Shown here: positions 5,995 to 29,661 of the stretch, in pieces
Position numbering within the stretch: position 1 is the stretch's first letter
How the letters are laid out: each line of letters opens with the position of its first letter
Virus record (IMG/VR): IMGVR_UViG_3300044707_000881
DNA: 64,000 nt
Direction: 5' to 3' (one strand)
Origin: an uncultured virus (IMG/VR IMGVR_UViG_3300044707_000881)
Taxonomy: Duplodnaviria; Heunggongvirae; Uroviricota; Caudoviricetes
Made by a program: the position numbers and the translations under genes
Notes under the pieces: generated by a model
Told to the model about the DNA's origin: nothing
The model's database searches: none
Seen by the model: only the letters and a program-made list of their open reading frames with translations

Positions 5995-6201
5995 ATGGAC
6001 GACAATTTAAAAAAAGCTCAACAGAATTACGAGAAATCCGAAAAAGGCAAGGCGCGACGCAAGCGTTACCGCCAGAAGCCTGAAGTCAGGGAACGTGAAC
6101 GGGAATTAGACCGCGAACGCAAGGAGTATAAACGGGAATATATGCGGGAATTTATGCGACAGAAACGGGCAAAGTTGAAGGAAGAAAAACAAGGTGAATG
6201 A
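5995..6201 (+). CDS. Small highly charged helical protein
   Basis: RBS AGGAG; K/R/E-rich 68 aa; CpG-rich, unlike its neighbours. Confidence 0.65.
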   Translation: MDDNLKKAQQNYEKSEKGKARRKRYRQKPEVRERERELDRERKEYKREYMREFMRQKRAKLKEEKQGE

Positions 6202-7219: not shown

Positions 7220-8218
7220 ATGAGAGTAGCAGAAATTAACACCACAGAACTAAATTTAGACCCCAAAAGATTTCAATACAAACTAGTCCACAATTCAACA
7301 GGTGCTACTGGTTCATTATCAAATATTGATTCTTGGAATGTTTACTTGTCTGGGATTGTTCTAGTATGGGGAGATCCCACAGATGGGAAAATTTATGTAG
7401 TCAATGGACATAACAGAGTTAACCTAGCTAAAAAATTGGGAACTGTTGAGAAAATTTTATGTAGGTTCATAGATGCCCAAAATCACACAGAAGCTAGGTT
7501 AACAGGTGCATTAGCTAACATTGCAGAAGGCATGGGAACTGCTGTTGATGCAGCTAAATTTTTCAGAGATTCTAGTTACAGCATTAATCAAGTAAAAAAC
7601 TTTGGTATCAATCCAAAATTAAAAATTGTGCAAGATGGGTTAAGTCTCTCAAATTTGGTTAGTTTCTTGTTTGACAAAGTTGCCATTGGTGATATTCCCA
7701 TTGATAAGGGTGTGATTTTAGGAAGTGTGGGGACTAGAGAACAGCTGGAAGTATGGGAACTAATCAAAGGTAAGCAGGTGAGCAGCAAAGCACTAGATGA
7801 GATTATTTCAAACATTCTTAACCCTGCAAGTGGGCAAACATCACTTTTTAACCTGTTCAATCAAGATAGTCAAGATGATGAATTAACCAAGCTGGAATTA
7901 GTTGCACAGGTGAGAGTCAAGCTACAAAGATCCAAAAAGTTGCTACATCTAGTTTCAAATCAAGGCAATGCTTCATTCTTGGAGTCAATTGGTAACAATC
8001 TCAATCAAGCTGGCAACTTATCAGCTAGTGAGTTAACCCATTATGTCCTGCAAATATTTGACCAACTAAAAAACCAACATTCTCCAGTGAGTGAGATTTT
8101 GAATAGTGGTGTTGATGCTAAAAAGTCTGGCAAGTCAATGACAACCATTGTTGATGACTGTGTTAGTCAGTTGATCACAGTCATCCCCAAAATGATTAAT
8201 CAAAAAGTTGCTGCATAA
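7220..8218 (+). CDS. ParB/Srx N-terminal-domain protein (early)
   Basis: DPKRFQYK...KIYVVNGHNRV ParB-like signature. Confidence 0.7.
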   Translation: MRVAEINTTELNLDPKRFQYKLVHNSTGATGSLSNIDSWNVYLSGIVLVWGDPTDGKIYVVNGHNRVNLAKKLGTVEKILCRFIDAQNHTEARLTGALANIAEGMGTAVDAAKFFRDSSYSINQVKNFGINPKLKIVQDGLSLSNLVSFLFDKVAIGDIPIDKGVILGSVGTREQLEVWELIKGKQVSSKALDEIISNILNPASGQTSLFNLFNQDSQDDELTKLELVAQVRVKLQRSKKLLHLVSNQGNASFLESIGNNLNQAGNLSASELTHYVLQIFDQLKNQHSPVSEILNSGVDAKKSGKSMTTIVDDCVSQLITVIPKMINQKVAA

Positions 8219-8874: not shown

Positions 8875-9408
8875 ATGGGTTATTTGGATGCAACCATGAA
8901 ACCCATAGCCTACTCAATGCGCCCCGAAGAAGCCTTAAAACTGGCAATTGGGGAAATCAGAATTATTTTAACAACTCAGGCAGAATCAAAGCGGAAAATC
9001 CTGTTTCACGCTTGCAGCTACGACACAACGGAACAGGAAAACGCCGGATTTAAAGCGATCGCACAGTTAGGGTTTTCGCCTGAAGAAGTGCCAACTAATT
9101 CAATTATTGGCTGGGCGAAAATTGCAGACGTGAAAACCTACGACGCGGCAAAATTTGCAATTGACGGGAAACTTCACGGACACGGATTTGATTTAAACCA
9201 GTTTCTTGCTGCTGAAGGTTGGCAAGGTCAACAAGTTTACGGATTAGTTTTAGAGGAACAACATTATTTAAACCTGCCAATTATGGGCGTGGGTTCAGAA
9301 TATGTACACGGCGACTTCTGGGAAGCACAAAGCCCGTTTCAAGTGGTGGCATTTGAACGGGCTTTAGATGCTGGGAGTGTTGATATTGCGGCTGCTGTGG
9401 GGTATTAA
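8875..9408 (+). CDS. Divergent ASCH-like protein
   Basis: AYSMRPEEA...ILFHA...NSIIGWAKIADV; lacks the GxKxxExR motif. Confidence 0.6.
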   Translation: MGYLDATMKPIAYSMRPEEALKLAIGEIRIILTTQAESKRKILFHACSYDTTEQENAGFKAIAQLGFSPEEVPTNSIIGWAKIADVKTYDAAKFAIDGKLHGHGFDLNQFLAAEGWQGQQVYGLVLEEQHYLNLPIMGVGSEYVHGDFWEAQSPFQVVAFERALDAGSVDIAAAVGY

Positions 9409-10016
9409 AGTCCTAATCTTTGTGCTGCGGCACGCGCTGCGGCTCTTTCTCCTGGAGTTGCACCACGTTGGGCTAAATTACGAATTGCATTGGCACGGCG
9501 GGAAGATACGCCACCGCCCCCGGATGCAGTTCTAGCACCCCCAGATCTTGCTGCCCCAGTTCTAGCCGCGCCAGAACCACGATAAGGATCGTTGCTGGTT
9601 CTTTTGAGTCCAGAAGTTCCGCCACGGGCTAATGCACCGCCGCGAGTTGCTAGACCTCCGCCTCCACCGCCGGGGAAGTCGGAGTTAAAATCTCTCCCAG
9701 CTTGCGCTCTTTGTGCGGCTCTTTGCCTTTGGGGGTTGTTTTGAATAGCGATAGAAGCAAGTGTAGCATCACCCCCCCGCGTCAGCCTACCCCTTCTCCC
9801 CCCTCTGGTTCTATTCTGGTTTGCAGCAGCGCGGGTATTTCGCGCCCGCCCGATGCCTATTCTATTCGCATTACCTAATGCTCCTGCTCCGTCAGGGGAA
9901 GTAATCAAAGTTCCATTACTTACCCCTCGCGTTTGATTGCCGCGTCTGCGTCTGCCACCGCCTCTATTCTGAGTGCCGCCAGCAGCAGTTCGTCTACCTC
10001 GTCCACCTCTAGCCAT
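9405..10016 (-). CDS. Arg/Gly/Ala-rich basic low-complexity (protamine-like) protein
   Basis: MARGGRGRR... start at 10016; very few acidic residues. Confidence 0.65.
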   Translation of the reverse strand: MARGGRGRRTAAGGTQNRGGGRRRRGNQTRGVSNGTLITSPDGAGALGNANRIGIGRARNTRAAANQNRTRGGRRGRLTRGGDATLASIAIQNNPQRQRAAQRAQAGRDFNSDFPGGGGGGLATRGGALARGGTSGLKRTSNDPYRGSGAARTGAARSGGARTASGGGGVSSRRANAIRNLAQRGATPGERAAARAAAQRLGL

Positions 10017-10063
10017 AATAGTCAATCCTAATTTTGTAAATATGTTTATTTTTAGTTTTCCCA

Positions 10064-10393
10064 ATGACGGTATTAGTAAAAACCCGCGCGATTCACTACG
10101 AGTTACTGACTGATGAGAGCGAGATTATTGGCGGCGTGTTTGCTGTTAATCACCGCCAATATATCGAGATAGTTGATTTATTTGTAAACAGAGAATTTCA
10201 AAATCAGGGACACGGGCGATCGCTCATGCAGATAATTTTCGACAATCACCCAAACAAAATACTCTGTTTACAATGCGGGGCTTTTAGCAATGGGTTAAGT
10301 CAGGGCAATTTAGCGGAATGGTATAAGCGGCTGGGATTTGTGGAGGGTACGCCATTTCATCAAGGGGATGGATGGATGCACAAACCTATTTAG
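10064..10393 (+). CDS. GNAT N-acetyltransferase
   Basis: LFVNREFQNQGHGRSLM (motif A) and WYKRLGF. Confidence 0.88.
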   Translation: MTVLVKTRAIHYELLTDESEIIGGVFAVNHRQYIEIVDLFVNREFQNQGHGRSLMQIIFDNHPNKILCLQCGAFSNGLSQGNLAEWYKRLGFVEGTPFHQGDGWMHKPI

Positions 10394-11276
10394 CCGTCAT
10401 CCTTGCTGTGATTTCCGGGAACAGATCACACAATTCTTTTAACTGAACCGGAGCATAACGCGCCATCCATTTATAGTAGGTACTACATAGAGTTTCCGGT
10501 GTGCAGTACCACAGAGTCCGAGGAAATGGCTTACCTTTTTTCTGCGGTATTTGGTGCATTGAGTAGATAGGACTAACAGGCGATTCATTCTCAACAAGTA
10601 ACGCCCAAACATCCATATCCAGCCAATCACCCAACGGTAAGGCGCGAACCCACGGCAGTAAATCTTTTTTATCCTGATCATGAAATTGCAGCATTCCAGC
10701 ACGGGCAATTTCAAACTGTCTATCCATACCCTCAGCACCACGCGCACCCCACATATACATTACGTTGGGGGTTCCGTCACCATACAAATGATGAAATTGG
10801 TAGATACTTTCATAACTAATTGACGTGCCAACATCGCCCCAATCCCAAAAGTTTAACCGTTGTCCACCTTCACCCTTCAGACCGTAGGAATTACCCCAAT
10901 CAATATACTTTTTAACTATTAGTGGAAACGGGTCATCAGTTAGATATTCTTCATAATAAAACCCGTTACCAAATGAGTTTATATAATCCTCCCACTCTGG
11001 CAAAACGTCATAATGTTGTGGGAGTTCCGCCCCACAGTCAATAATTAAATTACAATAATCAACCTCTGCCAATTCTAAAATTATCGCAGTTGCCATTGAA
11101 TCTTTACCATACCCAAACCATAGACCCGGTATGACATCCTGATTAACTTTAGGGTTGTCATACCAAGACTGCACACGCTCAATGGTTTTGTTTTTGAGTG
11201 CCTGAAATTCATCAGTTTTCGCCCGTTTCGCTGCTTCCAGATATTTCTTCTGTGGCAGTGCTTTCGATATTTCCAT
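10386..11276 (-). CDS. PAPS-reductase/PP-loop family protein
   Basis: FGYGKDS PP-loop, WGARGAEGMDR, PLGDWLDMDVW. Confidence 0.8.
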   Translation of the reverse strand: MEISKALPQKKYLEAAKRAKTDEFQALKNKTIERVQSWYDNPKVNQDVIPGLWFGYGKDSMATAIILELAEVDYCNLIIDCGAELPQHYDVLPEWEDYINSFGNGFYYEEYLTDDPFPLIVKKYIDWGNSYGLKGEGGQRLNFWDWGDVGTSISYESIYQFHHLYGDGTPNVMYMWGARGAEGMDRQFEIARAGMLQFHDQDKKDLLPWVRALPLGDWLDMDVWALLVENESPVSPIYSMHQIPQKKGKPFPRTLWYCTPETLCSTYYKWMARYAPVQLKELCDLFPEITARMTAK

Positions 11277-12208: not shown

Positions 12209-13139
12209 TTACTGCCACTCCTAATTCAGTAATCATCATGTCTACTATCTTTAGAATTACCTGACTCCGGTATTGTTGAACCATACCATCAGTTGAGATG
12301 CCAACTTGGGGCGCGAGTTGGTCAAGTTTGGATCTAAATGGTGCTAAGTCGGATTTATCGAGAAAGATATAAAACTGTGTTTGTTCGCCCTTTCCGGTGT
12401 AGTTGATACTTTGGACGCTGGCAACATCCGCCACGTTTTCAGTCTCAACTGTGACTTTTTCCGCAGGTGGTGGAGGCGTGTAATCACTTCTACTGGGTGT
12501 TACGTCAATCGTGGTGTTATTGGAATTTTGATCAGAATATTTATCATCATCAAAATCGTAGTTGCCCGTTTCTTCCTGTTCCTCTAACTCTTCGGGTTCT
12601 TCCGTCTTCCGTACCAGAAACGCTTGCATAAACGAGTTAGCAGTGCCAGAATCCCAACCCGCACTTTTTAGCTGCTTCTTAGGCATTTGTGCAAGGATAG
12701 CGGCTATTTTGCCGGGGTCATCACGTCCATCATGGGATGTGTTGTTAAGTCGAAGCAAAGCCGATTTTTGGCTAAGTTCATCGAGTGTTACGGGGACAAT
12801 TGGAATAGTTGCCCAATATTCAGCGCAAAACCGCTCTTGGTGCTTGTGAGAAACTTTGTCCCTCCCTGTACCTTTGATCCACCGCTCCCACTCTTTCAAG
12901 AAAAAGTCTTCATCCTGTTGACTTAGCCAGTCCGCACCCTGAACCCGTCCATGTCCAGAGATGAGATAGCCAAAACTACCGTCTAAATTCCGTTGAATTG
13001 TAGGGTAAATTAACCACCCGAAGTCTAGGAGTGAGTCACGAATCCAAGGCAAATCATTCTCTTCTGAATGTTCGCGGGGATTCTCAGGGTGAAACTTTGC
13101 CAACACGCCGGATGTTGGAAGGCGTAAAACTTCACTCAT
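12162..13139 (-). CDS. ParB-like protein (modification-associated type)
   Basis: HPENPREH...SLLDFGW...LISGHGRVQGA. Confidence 0.8.
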   Translation of the reverse strand: MSEVLRLPTSGVLAKFHPENPREHSEENDLPWIRDSLLDFGWLIYPTIQRNLDGSFGYLISGHGRVQGADWLSQQDEDFFLKEWERWIKGTGRDKVSHKHQERFCAEYWATIPIVPVTLDELSQKSALLRLNNTSHDGRDDPGKIAAILAQMPKKQLKSAGWDSGTANSFMQAFLVRKTEEPEELEEQEETGNYDFDDDKYSDQNSNNTTIDVTPSRSDYTPPPPAEKVTVETENVADVASVQSINYTGKGEQTQFYIFLDKSDLAPFRSKLDQLAPQVGISTDGMVQQYRSQVILKIVDMMITELGVAVNDSAAEPITAENIGF

Positions 13140-14254
13140 TTTTTAACAACCTCTACCGCTTTTTGTGAGTGAATCATTGCTTCATGCAGCGATTTTAACG
13201 CCGCTTCAACATGAGTAGAATCACCACAGGTTTTCATCACCCAGTCAGCAAGCCCGGTAAACTTGCTGGTAACTTGCCATTGTTGTTGTACTATCGTCAT
13301 TCGTTTTCTCGATAGATTTATTGAATCATTGATAACATAATTCTTAGCCCACAGGGAAGCGGTGCTGTGGTCAATTCCTAAATAGGTTTCGCACCAGTAG
13401 GAACTTTTGCCGTTAGCGATCGCATCAATTGCCCTAATCTTCAATTCCTTAGAATAGCCACGCCTCCCAATTGGCGCGGGGTTGTCCCTGAATTGAGTCT
13501 GGCAGGACTTGCACAAATAGCCCTGTTTACCGTCACGTTTACCATTTTTAATAGTTTGATAATCTTTGCAATTTGGACATTGAACCCGCCCAAGTGCCAT
13601 CAACTTTAGTTTTCGTAAAGCGTCAGACTCAATGCGGCGTAACTCCCTCAATTTAATATTGTGAATTTGGCACAGCATTTTGACGGGAATATGGTCAATG
13701 TATAAATCTCGGATAATTGTGGCGTGAAGTTCTGGCAGTTTGTCAAGTAGGGGGAGAATTGAATCTAATTCCTCTTGTTGTTCTGCCGTCAGTTGTTTAG
13801 GCAACTCAGGATTATTCTGATTGCAAGCCATCGCCGCCTCTTTGGCGACTTGCAAGGATATCTCAAGTTCTAAAGCAGCCTGTTCATAAGTTACGCCGTG
13901 CTTTTGGGCGTATCGCTTTAGTTTTTGGTGAGTTTCTTGTAACTGACGCGGGACTTTTACTATCCGCGCTTTATCCCTGACAAATTGCGCCATTGCACCA
14001 TAGATAAAGGGAACAGCGTAACTGGACAGCTTGATTTTCTTGGCAGGGTCAAACCTCTCCACCGCTTTGATCAACCCCTCCGCACCAATTTGTATCAGAT
14101 CTTCTCTTGGGACTGTGCAGCAAGCGGTCATTTTCCCTGCGACATGACCGACCAGTCCCATATTCATCTCAACTATTTTATTTCTCAGTCGGATGTCCCT
14201 GGTTTGGTGAAAATTAATTAAAAGTTGCTGGTTGTCTAAGTATGCCGCGTCCAT
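13136..14254 (-). CDS. SigF/SigJ-like sigma factor fused to IS1 InsA-like Zn-ribbon/HTH
   Basis: EDLIQIG..GLIKAVERFDP..LSSYAVPFI region 2; C-terminal CPNC..IKNGKRDGKQGYLCKSC plus HTH. Confidence 0.85.
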   Translation of the reverse strand: MDAAYLDNQQLLINFHQTRDIRLRNKIVEMNMGLVGHVAGKMTACCTVPREDLIQIGAEGLIKAVERFDPAKKIKLSSYAVPFIYGAMAQFVRDKARIVKVPRQLQETHQKLKRYAQKHGVTYEQAALELEISLQVAKEAAMACNQNNPELPKQLTAEQQEELDSILPLLDKLPELHATIIRDLYIDHIPVKMLCQIHNIKLRELRRIESDALRKLKLMALGRVQCPNCKDYQTIKNGKRDGKQGYLCKSCQTQFRDNPAPIGRRGYSKELKIRAIDAIANGKSSYWCETYLGIDHSTASLWAKNYVINDSINLSRKRMTIVQQQWQVTSKFTGLADWVMKTCGDSTHVEAALKSLHEAMIHSQKAVEVVKK

Positions 14255-17755: not shown

Positions 17756-18274
17756 ATGAACAATAATAATTATGGAATGTCTCAAACACGAGACAAATGT
17801 TATGGCGTAGCCGCTTGTCTTACCTATTGGGCTTTCAAGTGCCGTGACAGAAAACGTAGTCCAGCGATGGGTACTAAAACCTGGACTTACTTGGAATCAA
17901 GTATTAGAAACTCTGCTGAAATATCAACTAATTTAGAAGATTATTTGCAGCGACTTTGTGATAAACTTTGTTCACAATTACGCCCAATCGAGTTAACAAA
18001 AATAATTCAGCCAACACAACGGATACTAAGAGTAAATGAAGATGCGACGGAAATCAAGGAACTTCCCGTTGACCAAAATCTTGTATTTATGGGATGGTTG
18101 GATTTAATTGCTGACATTCAACCACACGGATTTACCGAGTGGGATGTACTTGAACTACTGAGAACCAAAGCAGGGATTATTCAAGTAATTTGTAGATTAC
18201 GGTTTGAGGAAGACCGCAGTTTAGGGTTAGATGAACCAGAAGAGTTTATAGAAGTTGAGGTGACAAATGTTTGA
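17756..18274 (+). CDS. Type IV-B small subunit (Cas11-like)
   Basis: Helical 172 aa, first gene of the csf operon, overlaps csf2. Confidence 0.55.
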   Translation: MNNNNYGMSQTRDKCYGVAACLTYWAFKCRDRKRSPAMGTKTWTYLESSIRNSAEISTNLEDYLQRLCDKLCSQLRPIELTKIIQPTQRILRVNEDATEIKELPVDQNLVFMGWLDLIADIQPHGFTEWDVLELLRTKAGIIQVICRLRFEEDRSLGLDEPEEFIEVEVTNV

Positions 18275-19397
18275 TAATTACGATGTTTTTGACCGTGAAA
18301 GATTGACATTGCATTGTGTAATTACGACACAAACGCCACTTTCACATATTGGGGAAGTGTCGGGAAATGTGAGCAATTTAAAAACATTAAAATTACTGGA
18401 TTTTGAAGGTAATCCCAGAAGTGTTTTCACCTATTCTGGAAATGCCTTGAGAAATGGTTTGTTACGGCGTGTAGGTGTAGCTGCGGCGTTAACTGAATTA
18501 GGATTACAGGTAAATCCTGATACACACCATACAATGTTTGCAGGTGGCAGGATTGATGCCGGTACAGCTTCAGATATGGAACTTGATAAAAAGATCCGGG
18601 TTCTAATGCCTTGGTTGTCGGTCTTAGGAACTGCTAAACCTGCTAAAGTGTTTGGTTCTAAAGATGCCCAAATGGTGCAAGGTAGGATTAATGTAGGTTC
18701 TGCTTACTTGGCTTGTTATGAGTCAGCAGAGTACATCTACAATCAGATACCAGCAATATTACCACCGGAAATACAACCCGCTATTCAGAAGCTAATTGAG
18801 GCTAAAAATAAATTATCTTCAGACCCATTCACTCCCACAAAAACTGAAGATTTGGATAATTGGAATCAAGCAAAAAATGACTACTTGCCTTTGATTAGAA
18901 AAGTAATGAAAACATGGTCTGAATATTTAACGGTTGATCAAACTACCCGCAGAGATGCAACTTTAGATCCTAATTTGATTAAATTTCTGCCAACAGAAGT
19001 ACAGGCGCAACTCAAGGGAGATGGTGCAGCTAAAGAGAAAAAATCGGATCAAATGATTGCTTCCGATAGATTAATTATGCCAGGAGCAAAACTATACTCA
19101 AGATGGGATTTGAACTGTACGCAAGTTGAGCAGGGATGGATTTTTGATACTTTATTGAAGTTTGCACAATTCCCGTATTTAGGTGGTAAAGGCAATCGCG
19201 GAAATGGTCGAGTCAGCATGAATTTCTGGTTTAGTTCTGAGTCAGAACGTGGTTTATTGTGGAGTTCTGAAAGTGGTGTAGAGAGCGATAGATTTAACCT
19301 GGCACACGCTAAATATAGAGAATATATCAATCAATATCAACAGTTTTTGAGTGAGGCGAAAACATCAACTGAGTTAAGGAGTTTGTTGGGTGGATAA
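18267..19397 (+). CDS. csf2: Type IV Cas7 RAMP (Csf2)
   Basis: TPLSH...YSGNALRNGLLRR...MFAGG and Gly-rich loop YLGGKGNRGNGRV. Confidence 0.85.
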   Translation: MFDNYDVFDRERLTLHCVITTQTPLSHIGEVSGNVSNLKTLKLLDFEGNPRSVFTYSGNALRNGLLRRVGVAAALTELGLQVNPDTHHTMFAGGRIDAGTASDMELDKKIRVLMPWLSVLGTAKPAKVFGSKDAQMVQGRINVGSAYLACYESAEYIYNQIPAILPPEIQPAIQKLIEAKNKLSSDPFTPTKTEDLDNWNQAKNDYLPLIRKVMKTWSEYLTVDQTTRRDATLDPNLIKFLPTEVQAQLKGDGAAKEKKSDQMIASDRLIMPGAKLYSRWDLNCTQVEQGWIFDTLLKFAQFPYLGGKGNRGNGRVSMNFWFSSESERGLLWSSESGVESDRFNLAHAKYREYINQYQQFLSEAKTSTELRSLLGG

Positions 19398-20079
19398 CTT
19401 AAAAATTACAGCACATTTGGCGACATCTTTGGGTGCTTATGACAACTGGAGTCCATCGCTAGAAGGGATTTTAGTTTATAGGCTTTTAGAACAAAATAAT
19501 CTACTTTCACCTAATCCCACGCCAGATCAAGTAGCAGAAACCAAAGAGTTTATTGAGCAGAATTTACCACTAAAACAAGGTGTCATTAAGTCAGAGAAAT
19601 ATTGGTGCGTGAGTTCACCTTGCTATGTTTTGCAGGGTGAAGCTACAGACAAATATAGAAAACGATGGGATAATCACGAAAACAATTTAGACTGGGGTAA
19701 GCGTAAGCCCAAATTTTTAACAGGTGAAGGGGCGGAAAAATCCTATGATTTACCGCTTTACACAAGGTTAATTAATTCTATTTCTTGGTTTGCTGTAGGC
19801 GATAAAACGGCAATCAAAAATCTTTTGTCGTCTGTTACTCACATTCAGAAAAAGCGTAGTTACGGCAATGGTGAAGTCAGGGAATGGGAAATAGGGGTGA
19901 TTTACGATAATTACCATCTGTGGCGTGATAGTAAATTAATGCGTCCTATCCCTGTTAGATTACTTGATCAAAAAATAGATAATCCTCAGATGGTTTGGGG
20001 GTGGAGAAGTCCCGCTTGGTTAGCGGCAAACAAGGAGTTGTGCTATATGCCAAAGGATAACGTGATTTATGCTAAGTAA
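19390..20079 (+). CDS. csf3: Type IV Cas5 RAMP (Csf3)
   Basis: LKITAHL N-terminus; WFAVGD...THIQKKRSYGNGEVREWEI; MRPIP. Confidence 0.8.
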   Translation: MDNLKITAHLATSLGAYDNWSPSLEGILVYRLLEQNNLLSPNPTPDQVAETKEFIEQNLPLKQGVIKSEKYWCVSSPCYVLQGEATDKYRKRWDNHENNLDWGKRKPKFLTGEGAEKSYDLPLYTRLINSISWFAVGDKTAIKNLLSSVTHIQKKRSYGNGEVREWEIGVIYDNYHLWRDSKLMRPIPVRLLDQKIDNPQMVWGWRSPAWLAANKELCYMPKDNVIYAK

Positions 20080-20815
20080 CGGATCTGGCGTTCAATATCC
20101 CTGGTTAAAAAAGAAAATAACCAGGGCAAAAGACTTAATTAAAACATGGTTAGAGCAATGCGATTATCAGGTTTACGCTAGTGTGTCAGGTGGTAAAGAT
20201 AGCCTAGTGATGTCACATTTGATTAGGCAAGTTTACTCAGATTGTCCATTGGTCTGGGTAAATCAGGGAATGTTTGCTGAATGGGATGATTGCATTGAAT
20301 TATTAGAGTTTTTGAAAACTCAGGGGTGGAATATTATTGAACTTTGTCCAGTGCGTGATTTATGGCATTTGTATCTGGATTATGGCGTTCCCCTTGAAGG
20401 GACGATGGACACAAAAGCCGATAAATTGATAAATCAAAAACTGATTTATGACCCGCTTAATGAATACCAAGAATTGAATAATGTTAAGGGTTATGCGTGG
20501 GGAATACGTAAGCAAGAAAGCAAAAACCGCGCATTTTATCTCAACAAATATGGTGAAGTGCATACGCTCAAAAACGGGTTGATTTGTTGCTCACCCGTGG
20601 CATTTTGGACTACTCAAAATATCTGGGAATATATTGATATGCACTCGTTAAAATACCCTGCTATTTATGATGTTGATAGAATGACAGTTAGGAATGGATG
20701 CCCAATCGGTACAACAGGTGCTAACTGGGGAAGATTAGCAGAGTTAAGAAAGCATTACCCAGATATTTATAATCAATTTGCTACTAAATTTCCACAGGTA
20801 TCAACCTATGTCTAA
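20069..20815 (+). CDS. CysH-like PAPS reductase (type IV-B associated)
   Basis: SVSGGKDS, WGIRKQESKNR, PVAFWTTQNIWEYI. Confidence 0.88.
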   Translation: MLSNGSGVQYPWLKKKITRAKDLIKTWLEQCDYQVYASVSGGKDSLVMSHLIRQVYSDCPLVWVNQGMFAEWDDCIELLEFLKTQGWNIIELCPVRDLWHLYLDYGVPLEGTMDTKADKLINQKLIYDPLNEYQELNNVKGYAWGIRKQESKNRAFYLNKYGEVHTLKNGLICCSPVAFWTTQNIWEYIDMHSLKYPAIYDVDRMTVRNGCPIGTTGANWGRLAELRKHYPDIYNQFATKFPQVSTYV

Positions 20816-21560
20816 TTGCTACCTTTGCGCTAAACCCGGATCTAATGCTTTGGAATTATCCAATACATTCACGATGCACTCGTCAGCTAAATGTCCAGAG
20901 TCTAAAGTGCTATGCGATCGCTGTCACTCTACAATTTCCGGTAATCAAAAGCAGCTTTGGTACTGGAATGAAGGTAAAAATAAATGGTCAAAGCTGTGGG
21001 GACGTTCTTTGTCCAGGGTTTATCAGGGTGATAAGCTAATTGCGCCTGTCGTTGAAGGTGAATATACAGAAGGCAAGGATACTTTTTCAATAGTTAAAAA
21101 CTTGCTGACTAGGGTGGGAATTAGGCAATACTTGTTAAATCCACCTGAACCGCCTTTTACTATAGCCATAGCAGAATCGGGGCAAAAACATATTATCCCT
21201 TGGGCGTTAGAAGGTCAAAACAGAGATTTATTCCCTGTGCAATTTGAACTCGACACTATTTATATTGACAATAGATTTAGAGAATATTTGGAAATTTACG
21301 AACAATTGATGGGATTAGGTTTTAGTAAGTCTGAAATTGATTCTGGAGATTATCGAAGCGATCGCCTAATGAAAGTTTTTGATCAATATGGGGAACTTGA
21401 GGAACGGATAGCGCGTATTAGGGGAACGAGATTAATGCAATTAATTAGCTATGTTGCCCAAGTGCAAGACGCGCCGCCAATTACGGAAGTAGTGCAAATT
21501 CCCGTAATGCCTGTTTCACCAAAAACACTTGAGAAGCCACTGCAATTATCTTTGTTTTAG
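20808..21560 (+). CDS. csf1: Type IV large subunit (Csf1, Cas8-like Zn-finger protein)
   Basis: CYLC...TFT...C...CDRC; LLNPPEPPF...SGQKH; C-terminus QLSLF. Confidence 0.8.
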   Translation: MSNCYLCAKPGSNALELSNTFTMHSSAKCPESKVLCDRCHSTISGNQKQLWYWNEGKNKWSKLWGRSLSRVYQGDKLIAPVVEGEYTEGKDTFSIVKNLLTRVGIRQYLLNPPEPPFTIAIAESGQKHIIPWALEGQNRDLFPVQFELDTIYIDNRFREYLEIYEQLMGLGFSKSEIDSGDYRSDRLMKVFDQYGELEERIARIRGTRLMQLISYVAQVQDAPPITEVVQIPVMPVSPKTLEKPLQLSLF

Positions 21561-23210: not shown

Positions 23211-23285
23211 TTTGTTATTGATTGTATGGATAAGGTTGAAAGTGCGATCGCCCCAAAAGAGACGACCGCGTGACGTACTATAGTC

Positions 23286-25005: not shown

Positions 25006-25093
25006 AATAAATCTTTCCTATTCAATATTTGTTCAATATTTGCGATGTTTACGAAAGCGCGGTCGTCTCTTTTGGGGCGATCGCCTAAATTAA

Positions 25094-25780
25094 TTATTCA
25101 AATGAAGCTAACGCCATTTCTACTAATTGATCCGGCGTGGCTTGCGCGTGTAGTTTTGCTTTACGTTCCGCCATGCGTTCAAATAGTTCTATTGATTCCT
25201 GTTCCAGTTGGTTCATGTTATCTCGATTGCACTGGAAATGACGCTTATTAAACAGCCGTTCATTTACCTTGACCGTCCAATCTCGATAATTGTTAGGCGT
25301 GGGAGTTACGCCAAATAAAGCGGTGGAACGGTCGCGTAAAATGTCAGTCCAAAGCTTACGGGCTAATATTCGTTTCATCCGTAATGCCAAAAGCTTATTA
25401 CGTTCTGACTCTTCAACTTGTTTGCCGAACGCTTTATCAAATCGTCTTTCCAGTCCCTCTTCAAGAATGGCATCAACAAAAGCCCTGGCAACCAAGTTAC
25501 CTTGTTTGTCTAATTGCCGTATAAGCTTAGACAGATCGGAAAGTACGATTATGTTGACGGCTTTTGGGTGTAAGTCGCTTTTAACTTTTTGGTGGGATTG
25601 GAAAGCTATGCTACACAAGGATTCTAACTGTTTTATGCTTCTTCCTGATGGGATTAATTTTATGTCGGCTAGTTGGGGAATAGAGGCAACATAACTGCCG
25701 TCGGGCATCATCAAGCCATCAATCTTGGCAAATCCTAAATCAACTGTCGCAACAACAGCTTTTGAGGTATCATTAGACAT
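25094..25780 (-). CDS. Putative phage DNA-binding/antirepressor-like protein
   Basis: VDLGFAKIDGLMMPDGSY N-terminus resembles P63C-type phage regulators. Confidence 0.5.
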   Translation of the reverse strand: MSNDTSKAVVATVDLGFAKIDGLMMPDGSYVASIPQLADIKLIPSGRSIKQLESLCSIAFQSHQKVKSDLHPKAVNIIVLSDLSKLIRQLDKQGNLVARAFVDAILEEGLERRFDKAFGKQVEESERNKLLALRMKRILARKLWTDILRDRSTALFGVTPTPNNYRDWTVKVNERLFNKRHFQCNRDNMNQLEQESIELFERMAERKAKLHAQATPDQLVEMALASFE

Positions 25781-26002
25781 AGTTCACTAAGTGGTTAAGT
25801 AAAGTGGACTAACCATTGAAACCACCGGAATACCGCAAATATTCCTGCGTGGTATGGTTTAAATAATTATATCATGTTTTCAATAGTCTTATTAATTTTT
25901 CAATAACTTAGGATACAATATTATCCAGTCGCGTGATGGTGTTGGTAGCACCGATTCACCACTGGCTGTAGGTCTTGTACACCCACATTGATATTATTCC
26001 CA

Positions 26003-27871
26003 ATGAAAACTATTAAAATCAAGGTCAAACTTCTTGCTGAACAGGCGCAATCATGCGATCGCTACCTAGAAGAATTGACATGGCTATGGAATCAGGTATT
26101 GGCTAATCAATTGCATAACCATTGCATCACCTGGTACAACTGGGCTGGTAAGTTGAGCGCAGATTTAGCTAAGGCGACGGAAAAGTTAGAGAAGCTAAAA
26201 CCGGAACAACAGCAGCTTGTTAGGAACTACTACCGCAGCAAAGACAAGCCAAAACTCAACAAAAAAGAACAGGAATTAGTTGCCAAATTTGATATATTTT
26301 CCCGGTGGTTGCCGTTTGACTTAGAAAATATTATTCCCGTACCTTTGCGAGTTGGCAACAGTGGCTACGAGGGCTTATCGTGCCAGATTGCTACAGGCGG
26401 AAGTTACTGGAAACGGGACGATAATTTTAATATTCCCATTAAAACCAAAAAGGGGATTATTCACGTCAAAGGGTCTAAATTAGTTAAGGGTGATTACCCC
26501 TGGAAACGGATAGAGATAATCCCCCACAAATACAAAACTTTCCCCAGTGGTAAGTTTGAGGGGAGGGAATTAATAGATTTAATGAAGTTTGATAATTTGA
26601 ACGGGTTAAACGGGTTAAGAGCGATGCAAAACCTACCAGACTTAACCGTTTCATCTCACTACGTCGGAGGCTTGTTAGGGTTTTTCAAACAGTCATGGTT
26701 AGCATTTTTAGACCCCAAAAGGATAAACAGCAGGAAGCCAAAATTCAAAAAAGATGCTGATAAGATTAGCACTTTATTTAATAAGCAATGTCCACCAAAT
26801 AAGATAGACATAAAGAATAATTCAGTTGAAATTACTGGATTTGGCAATTTAATCGTTACTGATAGAAGTTGGGGGGAAAGACTGAACCTAGATAGCAGTC
26901 TTCCTCGGGCGTATATGCTAACCAAAAAAGCATCTGGCTACTATATCAATATTGTCCTTGCTCACCCATTGCAAGAAGAAAAAGCGGTTTTAACAAAGAA
27001 ATTACCCAAGGTTAAAAAGGAGCTTGGAGAAGACAGCCAAGAGTACGAAAATATTAAGTCTAAAATCAAGTTTATTGAACAGCAAATCAAGGATTCGTTA
27101 ATCGTAGTGGGAAAGAATTTAAGCGTAGGGATTGACCCTGGAGTACAGGCTATTGTGGCGACAGATCACGGGGCGTTATTCCTCCCAAATCTAAGCAGGG
27201 AAAGAGTGTCAATCCATATAGAGGAACTACAATCAAGGCTTGATAACCTTGAATTAATTAATGATAAAAAGTGGAAAGATTCAGGAAGCAAAGGTGCTAG
27301 ACCTAAGACAAAAAACGAGATTAAGATACAAGATAAAATTACCAGATTACATGAACGTGGGGCTAATTCTTCTAATGCCTTTAATCATAAAATGTCAACT
27401 AGATTAAGCAGGACTTACGAGCATATAGCATGGGAGGATACCCAGTTAACCAATCTCCTAAAACAAACAGAAGCTAAAGCATTGCCTGAAGGGGTGGGAT
27501 ATGCTCACAACGGCGCGTCTGCTAAACGGGGTTTAAATTGGATTATGAGACAAAGATGCTTGGGTGATTTAAAAGCTAAAACTAAGCAAAAAGTTGAGAA
27601 CAGAGGCGGTAGTTTTCATGAACCACCTGCTAACTACAGTTCTCAACTATGCCATTGTTGTCATCAGAAAGGTGAGCGATTATCACAGTATGAGTTTGTC
27701 TGCAAAAACTCTGAATGTGAGTTATTTGAACAGGTGCAACAAGCTGACACCAATGCGGCTAGGAATCACAAACATAATAGTAGTTTTGAACTAGGAGAAG
27801 TCAAATATCACAACACTAGATTGGTTTACCAAAAACCCAAGAGATTTAAAAAGAAACGCTTGACAAAGTAG
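26003..27871 (+). CDS. TnpB-derived compact type V (Cas12-like) RNA-guided nuclease
   Basis: MKTIKIK..L TnpB-like N-terminus; RuvC-I VGIDPG, RuvC-II IAWED, Zn finger CHCC..C...C, RuvC-III ADTNAARN; adjacent array. Confidence 0.88.
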   Translation: MKTIKIKVKLLAEQAQSCDRYLEELTWLWNQVLANQLHNHCITWYNWAGKLSADLAKATEKLEKLKPEQQQLVRNYYRSKDKPKLNKKEQELVAKFDIFSRWLPFDLENIIPVPLRVGNSGYEGLSCQIATGGSYWKRDDNFNIPIKTKKGIIHVKGSKLVKGDYPWKRIEIIPHKYKTFPSGKFEGRELIDLMKFDNLNGLNGLRAMQNLPDLTVSSHYVGGLLGFFKQSWLAFLDPKRINSRKPKFKKDADKISTLFNKQCPPNKIDIKNNSVEITGFGNLIVTDRSWGERLNLDSSLPRAYMLTKKASGYYINIVLAHPLQEEKAVLTKKLPKVKKELGEDSQEYENIKSKIKFIEQQIKDSLIVVGKNLSVGIDPGVQAIVATDHGALFLPNLSRERVSIHIEELQSRLDNLELINDKKWKDSGSKGARPKTKNEIKIQDKITRLHERGANSSNAFNHKMSTRLSRTYEHIAWEDTQLTNLLKQTEAKALPEGVGYAHNGASAKRGLNWIMRQRCLGDLKAKTKQKVENRGGSFHEPPANYSSQLCHCCHQKGERLSQYEFVCKNSECELFEQVQQADTNAARNHKHNSSFELGEVKYHNTRLVYQKPKRFKKKRLTK

Positions 27872-27888
27872 ATGGTTTTAGTTATTAT
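27860..27888 (+). promoter_or_regulatory. Promoter for tracrRNA-like RNA
   Basis: TTGACA-17-TATTAT overlapping the effector stop codon. Confidence 0.7.
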
Positions 27889-27894
27889 CAATTT

Positions 27895-28040
27895 ACCGCA
27901 GTTTGGACGGGATGACTGGTTCTGTCAGTCTATGACTTGATGATTTTACGATCAAAAAGTAAGGGAGATGGTGACTACTCCCATAGACCAGCCGGAACTA
28001 TGGCTGGCAATCCTCAGAAGGGATTAATCATTTTGCAATC
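27895..28040 (+). ncRNA. tracrRNA-like RNA
   Basis: Three hairpins followed by an anti-repeat at 28008-28038 complementary to the CRISPR repeat. Confidence 0.75.
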
Positions 28041-28165
28041 ATCGAAGCGGCGTGGCTAAAACAAACCCGCGCGCAAATCCAGAACCTAGACAAGCGAAGG
28101 GATTAGAGCTATCTTTGCAGAATATCAAAAGGGATTTAAGCGGCTGCAATGGACTTTTTGGATTC

Positions 28166-29082
28166 CTTGCAGGATGACTAATCCCTTCTGAGGGATTGAA
28201 ACAATGATACTGGTAACACGTTCTCTTGGTTGTTTACCTTGCAGGATGACTAATCCCTTCTGAGGGATTGAAACCAGCCTGGAGAGGGAATTTCAGCAAG
28301 AATTAGAACTTGCAGGATGACTAATCCCTTCTGAGGGATTGAAACTCCTTGCCAGAAATTAAGGAACAGTGCGAGATGATGACTAGCTTGCAGGATGACT
28401 AATCCCTTCTGAGGGATTGAAACTATCAGAATATTGATTAATAGATGTAGTGTAATGTGCTTGCAGGATGACTAATCCCTTCTGAGGGATTGAAACGACA
28501 GTATCCTTCATTGTGCTATTGGAAATAATGAGCTTGCAGGATGACTAATCCCTTCTGAGGGATTGAAACTAACCATTTGTTCTAGCAGTTGGTTTTCTGC
28601 TATGTTCTTGCAGGATGACTAATCCCTTCTGAGGGATTGAAACAACTTCCAAGAGGGCGCGGAGGTCAAGTCCAAACTTGCACTTGCAGGATGACTAATC
28701 CCTTCTGAGGGATTGAAACCACCAAAGGCAAGAATTAGCACAAGAATTTGTACCTTGCAGGATGACTAATCCCTTCTGAGGGATTGAAACTGTTTCCCGT
28801 CTCCCAGTTTGGCGAGTGCATCGGAATTGCTTGCAGGATGACTAATCCCTTCTGAGGGATTGAAACAGATCCTTTTGTGGGATTGATAGCAGCCCGTTGT
28901 ACTTGCAGGATGACTAATCCCTTCTGAGGGATTGAAACTTGACTTAATTCTATTCCCCCAAAAGATGACATTACTTGCAGGATGACTAATCCCTTCTGAG
29001 GGATTGAAACGCGCTAATTCTTTCACTGCAAATACTCCTATTGATCTTGCAGGATGACTAATCCCTTCTGAGGGATTGAAAC
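28166..29082 (+). CRISPR. CRISPR array: 13 identical 37-bp repeats, 12 spacers of 34-41 bp
   Basis: Repeat CTTGCAGGATGACTAATCCCTTCTGAGGGATTGAAAC at 28166, 28238, 28309, 28387, 28460, 28533, 28607, 28683, 28754, 28830, 28902, 28974, 29046. Confidence 0.99.
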
Positions 29083-29286
29083 TTGGATTGGTACGGACAT
29101 GACGACTACATAGTGCCAATCAACCCAGAATTTAAAGCAAGCGAATTGAATTATCAAGTTGCCGTAAAGCGTGGTGAAGTAAAACCATTTCCAATTGAGT
29201 AAAGTTATTTGGAATTTTACCTCAATTCCATCAATAGTTTGTCCGTTATATTTGCCTTTGGGAAGTTTATTTTTGAGTTGGTTCAC
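29038..29286 (-). CDS. Hypothetical protein whose 3' end runs through the last CRISPR repeat
   Basis: C-terminal VSIPQKGLVILQ is the repeat read on the minus strand. Confidence 0.4.
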   Translation of the reverse strand: MNQLKNKLPKGKYNGQTIDGIEVKFQITLLNWKWFYFTTLYGNLIIQFACFKFWVDWHYVVVMSVPIQVSIPQKGLVILQDQ

Positions 29287-29442
29287 GGTTTTTAATAATT
29301 GTATTAATCTATAACATTATACATACTTAAGATCAAAAAAAAGCCCCTGATTTCTCAGAGGCTAATTTCTAAAATGGCAGAAAATCGTATAAATTTCTTT
29401 TACCAGATAGACTTTCTCTACCACTTAAATTCCTCCAAAAGA

Positions 29443-29661
29443 TTAATCTTCATCAGCTTCATAGTCAGGGCGATCGCCAGTGAGTAGCTGAAATATTTCT
29501 TCAGCCGCGCAAAGAATTGATTTTTCTGTTGGATGCTGGGAATTAAAAAAATAGCCCGGATTTTGCCGTTTTGCATACCCTAGATACCCGTAGATGATCC
29601 AACAAAGGTCTTCAATAAACTCTTTTTGATTGCAGTCAAATGATGTGTCGATCTTCATCAT
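29443..29661 (-). CDS. Hypothetical protein
   Basis: 72-aa ORF. Confidence 0.55.
   Translation of the reverse strand: MMKIDTSFDCNQKEFIEDLCWIIYGYLGYAKRQNPGYFFNSQHPTEKSILCAAEEIFQLLTGDRPDYEADED

Follow-up and report, generated by a model that had tools for sequence, protein, structure and literature searches.

A probable tracrRNA gene with a long anti-repeat in a Cas12p locus of a cyanobacterial phage

Between a compact effector gene and a CRISPR array, the DNA of an uncultured tailed virus holds a short stretch ending in a near copy of the array repeat in inverse orientation. Does it encode a tracrRNA for the array, to which system would this RNA belong, and what might so long an anti-repeat do? 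Throughout, the window is the whole stretch analysed (64,000 nucleotides, IMG/VR record IMGVR_UViG_3300044707_000881). From sequence comparisons we conclude, with high confidence, that a type V-P (Cas12p) system in a tailed cyanobacterial phage has its tracrRNA gene at 27895 to about 28040. The original prediction was right in calling a tracrRNA, but the structure of such an RNA is already available from a close relative, and the novelty it implied is unsupported. The features of the locus are as follows.

26003..27871, + strand: cas12p effector gene, 622 aa, RuvC triad D378/E478/D582 intact
27860..27888, + strand: putative sigma70-type promoter match, 11/12 (-35 at 27860-27865, -10 at 27883-27888)
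27895..28040, + strand: predicted tracrRNA, +1 placed by homology, 3' end approximate
27896..27910, + strand: stem 1, with loop GUUU (27901-27904) as anti-repeat 1
27914..27930, + strand: stem 2 (variable), from folding; 47.5% of cells paired, poor family alignment
27935..27960, + strand: stem 3; 95.9% of cells paired, 2/4 pairs changed on both sides
27963..27982, + strand: stem 4; 5/7 pairs changed on both sides
27988..28007, + strand: stem 5; 6/6 pairs changed on both sides
28008..28038, + strand: second anti-repeat segment, 31 nt, forming a duplex with the repeat
28039..28165, + strand: array leader of a type I-D-like family, 127 nt, repeat-proximal ~55 nt missing
28166..29082, + strand: CRISPR array, 13 identical 37-nt repeats and 12 spacers of 34-41 nt
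28720..28753, + strand: spacer 8, 33/34 match to Anabaena sp. 90 plasmid pANA03, 5' GTT PAM

The effector gene and its phage

The best curated profile matches of the effector are to V-U2/C2c8 (NF038192, 185.6 bits, below the cut-off of 350 bits; PADLOC Cas12u2, 190 bits). This assignment was dropped once comparison with solved structures gave Cas12p as the top match (PDB 9JFS/9JG3, 1139.7 bits). Cas12p ("Cas12 hacker", type V-P) has been described, in the parts available to us of a preprint, as co-purifying with tracrRNA and crRNA, depending on thioredoxin and cutting dsDNA beside a GTN PAM (Wang et al., 10.1101/2025.01.20.633832). Its family members measure 500-700 aa and most are more than 70% identical; with 622 aa and 80% identity to the 9JFS protein, the window effector falls within these bounds. 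We take the relative L025 as the carrier of the prototype protein since its product and PDB 9JFS chain A agree at every one of residues 1-613, and 495 of 622 residues (80%) are common to it and the window effector. The latter keeps 3/3 catalytic residues, 7/7 of the basic loop, 3/4 PAM contacts and 14/14 residues of the presumed thioredoxin-binding pocket. At residue 261 it has K, where the prototype has a PAM-contacting N (N261K). The supplements of the preprint align the RNAs of twelve family members, possibly with the present locus among them. In the literature searched, with subscription journals outside coverage, this preprint was the only primary paper to turn up on Cas12p RNAs.

Terminase, portal, tail and tape-measure genes (61 proteins scanned) mark the window as a tailed phage, and relatives of the locus also lie on viral contigs. 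The carrier is likely a phage of filamentous cyanobacteria, with Nostocales as hosts; this would be an addition, the available text of Wang et al. leaving hosts open. No adaptation genes were seen among the window proteins scanned. A type IV-B-like operon (cas11, csf2, csf3, cysH-like, csf1) occupies 17756-21560 (+), 4.4 kb before cas12p. Genes of such an operon also lie near cas12p in L025, L027, L030 and L031. Scaffold copies in L047-L051, L054 and L055 have a csf3 homologue nearby. A perfect 27-bp inverted repeat (23244-23270 and 25058-25084, 1787 nt apart) flanks two ORFs, and the segment between its arms is possibly invertible or mobile. The phage also carries a second PAPS-reductase-like gene (10386-11276, -) and an RNA polymerase sigma factor gene (13136-14254, -).

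The scaffold and its putative promoter

Cryo-EM resolved 118 nt of the prototype tracrRNA, with six stems and a pseudoknot (PDB 9JFS, 9JG3). This RNA pairs with the crRNA repeat twice, through a GUUU:AAAC pseudoknot, in which tracrRNA 7G-10U meets repeat -1C to -4A, and through the 6-bp stem 6 (10.1101/2025.01.20.633832, as far as its available parts describe). Counted from the conserved RNA start, the L025 bases G7-U10, U42, U43, G64, C77, G78 and A79 fall exactly at the positions given in the preprint, and the 6-nt anti-repeat ends at 118, again exactly as given. The window RNA aligns with this L025 RNA, and the prototype numbering thus maps +1 onto 27895. Window and prototype RNAs are identical in 90 of 121 alignment columns and in five of the six bases of the stem 3-stem 4 tertiary contact (42U, 43U, 64G; 77C, 78G, 79A), 77C being replaced by U. 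Judged by sequence, all five internal stems as well as the repeat:anti-repeat stem 6 are present. Three hairpins had been noticed before and are indeed found (27914-27930, 27963-27982, 27988-28007); stem 1, stem 3 and the GUUU segment at 27901-27904 had been missed. This segment is complementary to the terminal AAAC of the repeat and would form the pseudoknot, and because the prototype numbering places G7-U10 there, the anti-repeat is best described as bipartite (27901-27904 and 28008 onward). In distant relatives, a GUUC loop accompanies repeats ending GAAC.

Folded alone, the window RNA reaches z = -2.97 (2/200 shuffles as good), and an Rfam search gave no family at gathering score and 18 weak matches. 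The original prediction had proposed a covariance model of homologous loci as a check, and the structure does covary. In an alignment of 26 hand-picked distinct scaffold copies, scored against a structure based on the window fold and the preprint, 79.7% of cells are paired against 68.9 +/- 0.9 in shuffles, and slid structure registers reach at most 51%. Double changes number 93 against 34 +/- 6, with 0/500 shuffles as high; neither this count nor the permutation counts below are probabilities, since the compared sequences are related. The signal comes from stems 3-5. Stems 1 and 2 rest on homology and folding, the former being nearly invariant and the latter poorly aligned; an independent consensus fold recovered stems 1, 3, 4 and 5. 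A model of the scaffold, R1, gave 61 matches in 43 sources, including copies outside its training set (e.g., L013-L018). Its only window match is 27895-28013, the window having been in the training set. When strict filters were applied and 24 candidates were scored in each genome, R1 matched 4 of 151 host genomes, every time at a cas12p-family locus.

The promoter match described earlier, TTGACA-17-TATTAT overlapping the effector stop, is present at 27860-27888: the -35 box lies within the last codons of the gene, and the stop (27869-27871) inside the 17-nt spacer. Among the 13 promoter-like sites in 25700-29500, a number not above chance (shuffles 9.1 +/- 3.5), it scores highest. The same arrangement, defined as a -10 box plus a -35 matching at least 5/6, precedes 15 of 24 scaffold copies, some of which have no gene end nearby; the background is 0.24% of 18,270 window positions. 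Such conservation backs the claim of a promoter separate from the effector mRNA, from which the host RNA polymerase would start the tracrRNA at 27895.

Would this transcript stop before the array? No terminator was found between tracrRNA and array, nor any on the + strand before 28583. Together with the loss of the proximal ~55 nt of the leader and the direct fusion of scaffold and repeat in some relatives, this would suit a single RNA, driven by the 27860 promoter through anti-repeat, leader and array, that pairs in cis with its first repeat and is then cut. We consider this less likely than not, given that a weaker promoter match (9/12) lies in the leader at 28087-28115, that in many relatives the anti-repeat finishes in a T-run or has one just behind it, and that a single cis partner could serve no more than one repeat of an array with 12 spacers.

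The anti-repeat and its duplex

As had been stated, the anti-repeat is a near full-length copy: 28 of 32 positions match the reverse-complemented repeat, with one deletion, one substitution and CC>TT at 28008-28038. Co-folding, another of the checks proposed, makes its duplex with the repeat the strongest outside the array, at -43.8 kcal/mol among 21,002 segments of 36 nt (next unrelated site -32.4; mean -12.0, sd 3.6). One argument of the original prediction does not hold, namely that G:U pairing fixes the strand. The duplexes differ by 1 kcal/mol (-43.6 on the + strand vs -42.6 on the - strand) because the one mismatched position pairs as G:U when read on the minus strand; homology and the PAMs of the protospacers settle the strand instead.

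Across the family the anti-repeat tracks the repeat of its own locus. Of 18 cassettes collected, 16 were kept after removal of 2 near-duplicates. With the 36 nt that follow stem 5 (its end set by hand in 6 cassettes), their summed duplex energy is -395 against -246 +/- 21 kcal/mol (0/100,000 permutations), with 111 of 128 anchored pairs against 87 +/- 4. The own repeat ranks first in 8/16 cassettes and among the top four in 14/16. Homology to the solved Cas12p tracrRNA, covariation and this cognate matching together argue for the predicted pairing with pre-crRNA. As a separate observation, L031 holds two tracrRNA-plus-array cassettes with different repeats and one effector (2411-2529, -, and 7901-8020, +), and a spacer of one of its arrays matches the scaffold of the other cassette.

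Does the whole length of the duplex matter? Its strength ranges from -11 to -43 kcal/mol in the 16 cassettes, the window being the strongest (-43), and the solved prototype works with 6-7 pairs in a weak duplex (-14 in L025). It is therefore possible, if doubtful, that only 28008-28013 counts and that the distal 25 nt, recently copied from the repeat and neutral, take no part in processing, as in the anti-repeat "reset" by recombination that has been proposed (PMC6546382, available part). Against such a neutral copy, the distal part alone prefers its own repeat (-244 vs -146 +/- 16, 0/50,000), the whole anti-repeat gives cognate pairing rank 1 of 120 among five loci with similar hairpin repeats, and two of the three substitutions keep G:U pairs. 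The distal preference is nevertheless compatible with neutrality because repeated re-copying would give the same pattern. If the long duplex is functional, its extra ~25 nt would open the hairpin of the repeat itself, and a host RNase, likely RNase III by analogy with type II, would trim the duplex and release crRNAs. The main text of 10.1101/2025.01.20.633832 has 0 occurrences of "RNase III", "matur", "type IV" or "cyanobact". The idea that long anti-repeats go back to hairpins hiding repeat positions -10 to -5 was not supported (rho 0.16, p 0.55, 16 cassettes); for overall repeat MFE the p values are 0.08 and 0.05.

Array, targets and guide RNA evolution

Repeat and leader of the window resemble those beside a host cas7d-cas5d-cas6d-cas4d-cas1-cas2d operon, the leader type having been read from alignment to the full L004 leader and a host I-D leader. 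A recent copy of the repeat from a host array was considered and rejected, as 0/301 genomes hold a match within 3 mismatches; only family likeness remains. L004 has two arrays in tandem, the second with the repeat of the window and a full leader. The window array may no longer acquire spacers, since its leader lacks ~55 nt and the L002 array differs from it only by internal spacers. In L005 (7179-7291) what reads as the first spacer consists of the final 13 nt of the full L004 leader, and spacer 10 ends alike; repeat copies have evidently been inserted into, or recombined with, the leader. In L025 a second array (8930-10928; 28 repeats of another type without the AAAC end) adjoins the prototype Cas12p array.

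The repeat carries a Cas6-type hairpin, and the cyanophage N-1 repeat is cut by host Cas6 (10.1101/2020.04.14.041012, available part). With the likeness to host I-D repeats and the operon at 17756-21560, one could imagine that host Cas6 processes the array for a host or type IV-B complex, the inverted repeat copy being a rearrangement relic and the hairpins chance. This is highly improbable: the scaffold has been conserved through compensatory changes, is found in the genomes searched only together with cas12p-family genes, and is homologous to the RNA seen in the Cas12p structure.

Spacer 8 is the only one of the 12 window spacers with a convincing target. A comparison of 270 family spacers with the collected loci, some of which had been gathered because they matched these arrays, left 22 rows after array copies and alignments below 20 nt were dropped. 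GTN precedes 9 of the 11 rows at up to 5 mismatches (5/6 spacers, one of them from the window), a preference that I-D acquisition also selects, and the window effector itself has K at PAM-contact position 261; a partial match of window spacer 6, among the dropped rows, is without GTN. Isolated phages gave 9 chance-level matches. Self-targeting was also considered for 2/12 spacers, with 4-mismatch matches over the first 20 nt, one with GTC, and these were taken as chance. In another Cas12p array, L041 spacer 4 matches L038:7445-7477 (33/33, GTG PAM) and so targets the cas12p gene of a different phage, two further L041 spacers matching the same phage group as L038. L007 spacer 23 matches its own contig (L007:11359-11383, 4 mismatches, GTG PAM). 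Since type I-D Cas4 selects GTN spacers (PMC5896167, available part), a supply in trans by host type I-D Cas1-Cas2-Cas4 would fit. The tracrRNA/crRNA pair and host thioredoxin would then arm Cas12p for dsDNA cutting beside a GTN PAM, as shown for the 80% identical orthologue, and the system might clear rival plasmids and phages from the infected cell.

The derivation of the RNA from an omegaRNA, part of the original prediction, has as its basis the omegaRNA likeness published in the available parts of Wang et al. and the fused forms in relatives. A stand-alone TnpB omegaRNA homologue was not found, all R1 matches in the 151 genomes lying at cas12p loci. The natural fused single-guide forms are the following.

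L054:4009-4135 and 11096-11232, + strand: fused form
L053:524-658, - strand: fused form
L043:578-718, - strand: fused form
L051:1478-1625, - strand: fused form

In the distant relatives L053, L043, L054 and L055 the scaffold is fused via a hairpin to the pseudoknot partner; in L051 it is fused to the whole repeat. The spacer after this fused repeat recurs in an array, an indication of re-fusion in L051. RNA splitting has been cited as the route to type V (TranC work, via 10.64898/2026.03.27.714800, available part), and re-fusion is reported for Cas12f-derived systems (PMC10691335, available part). Guides of the fused RNAs had no targets among the collected loci. In phage Cr-LKS4 the stretch examined contains three copies of the scaffold and no array.

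Repeat type does not follow the protein tree, in which, with the L009 row left out because of its out-of-frame translation, the window and L004 together form the sister group of L031/L025/L027 (96/94). L008, at 69% protein identity, shares 33/37 repeat positions with the window, and L025, at 80%, shares 23/38 columns. The hairpin repeat and long anti-repeat of the window look ancestral because the outer rows L007, L008 and L040 share them, although exchange between phages could yield the same picture. In this context we put forward a tentative scenario, which taken as a whole we regard as conceivable rather than probable. Cas12p phages would keep the scaffold, repeatedly swap leader plus array for ones with a different repeat and each time refit the 3' end of the tracrRNA by copying the new repeat. 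The long duplex would be ancestral and selected, opening the I-D-like hairpin and routing the array to tracrRNA-dependent processing; it would shield the array from host Cas6 while host I-D Cas1-Cas2-Cas4 still adds GTN spacers. The published prototype would then be a derived short-duplex outlier, and sister lineages would have re-fused the scaffold into single guides. If so, the family would show the splitting, refitting and re-fusion of guide RNAs as a living series. The locus adds a natural variant of Cas12p that has a different repeat, an anti-repeat of much greater length and a change at one PAM-contact residue, and so compact a family is suited to a direct test of the reset idea of Faure et al. 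and of the Cas12p crRNA maturation route.

Among known systems, V-U2/C2c8 (e.g., of cyanophage CL131), grouped with Cas12f3 in the available part of 10.1101/2023.02.03.527072, likewise joins a compact RuvC effector and an array in cyanophages. However, the CL131 protein has 466 aa against 622 aa and 28% identity, and R1 has no match at its locus. The available part of PMC6293099 reports no tracrRNA there; we note a candidate starting inside the gene end (L056:6055-6230), whose loop CUUG matches the repeat end CAAG and whose anti-repeat reaches -25 kcal/mol at 6177. As to TnpB omegaRNAs, the preprint, in its available parts, matches stems 1-4 and 6 to omegaRNA stems. An omegaRNA, by contrast, joins scaffold, both duplex strands and guide in one RNA at a transposon end, whereas the window RNA is a split form that has no overlap with the coding sequence and works for an array, its anti-repeat being followed by a 127-nt leader and then the separate array. 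Type II and V-B tracrRNAs share the long imperfect hybrid, the preference for the native repeat and the proposed anti-repeat reset (Faure et al., PMC6546382, available part), but their scaffold is unrelated, and RNase III processing has been shown for type II, not Cas12p. With Cas12hacker-1/Cas12p the window shares, as far as the preprint's available parts tell, the location of the RNA after the gene, the stems, the pseudoknot and stem 6, as well as phage origin, a 37-nt repeat and the lack of adaptation genes (among the window proteins scanned). It differs from the prototype in its N261K change at a PAM-contacting residue, in a repeat of the I-D-like hairpin family (23/38 columns identical), and in an anti-repeat of ~30 pairs where the prototype has ~7 contiguous pairs.
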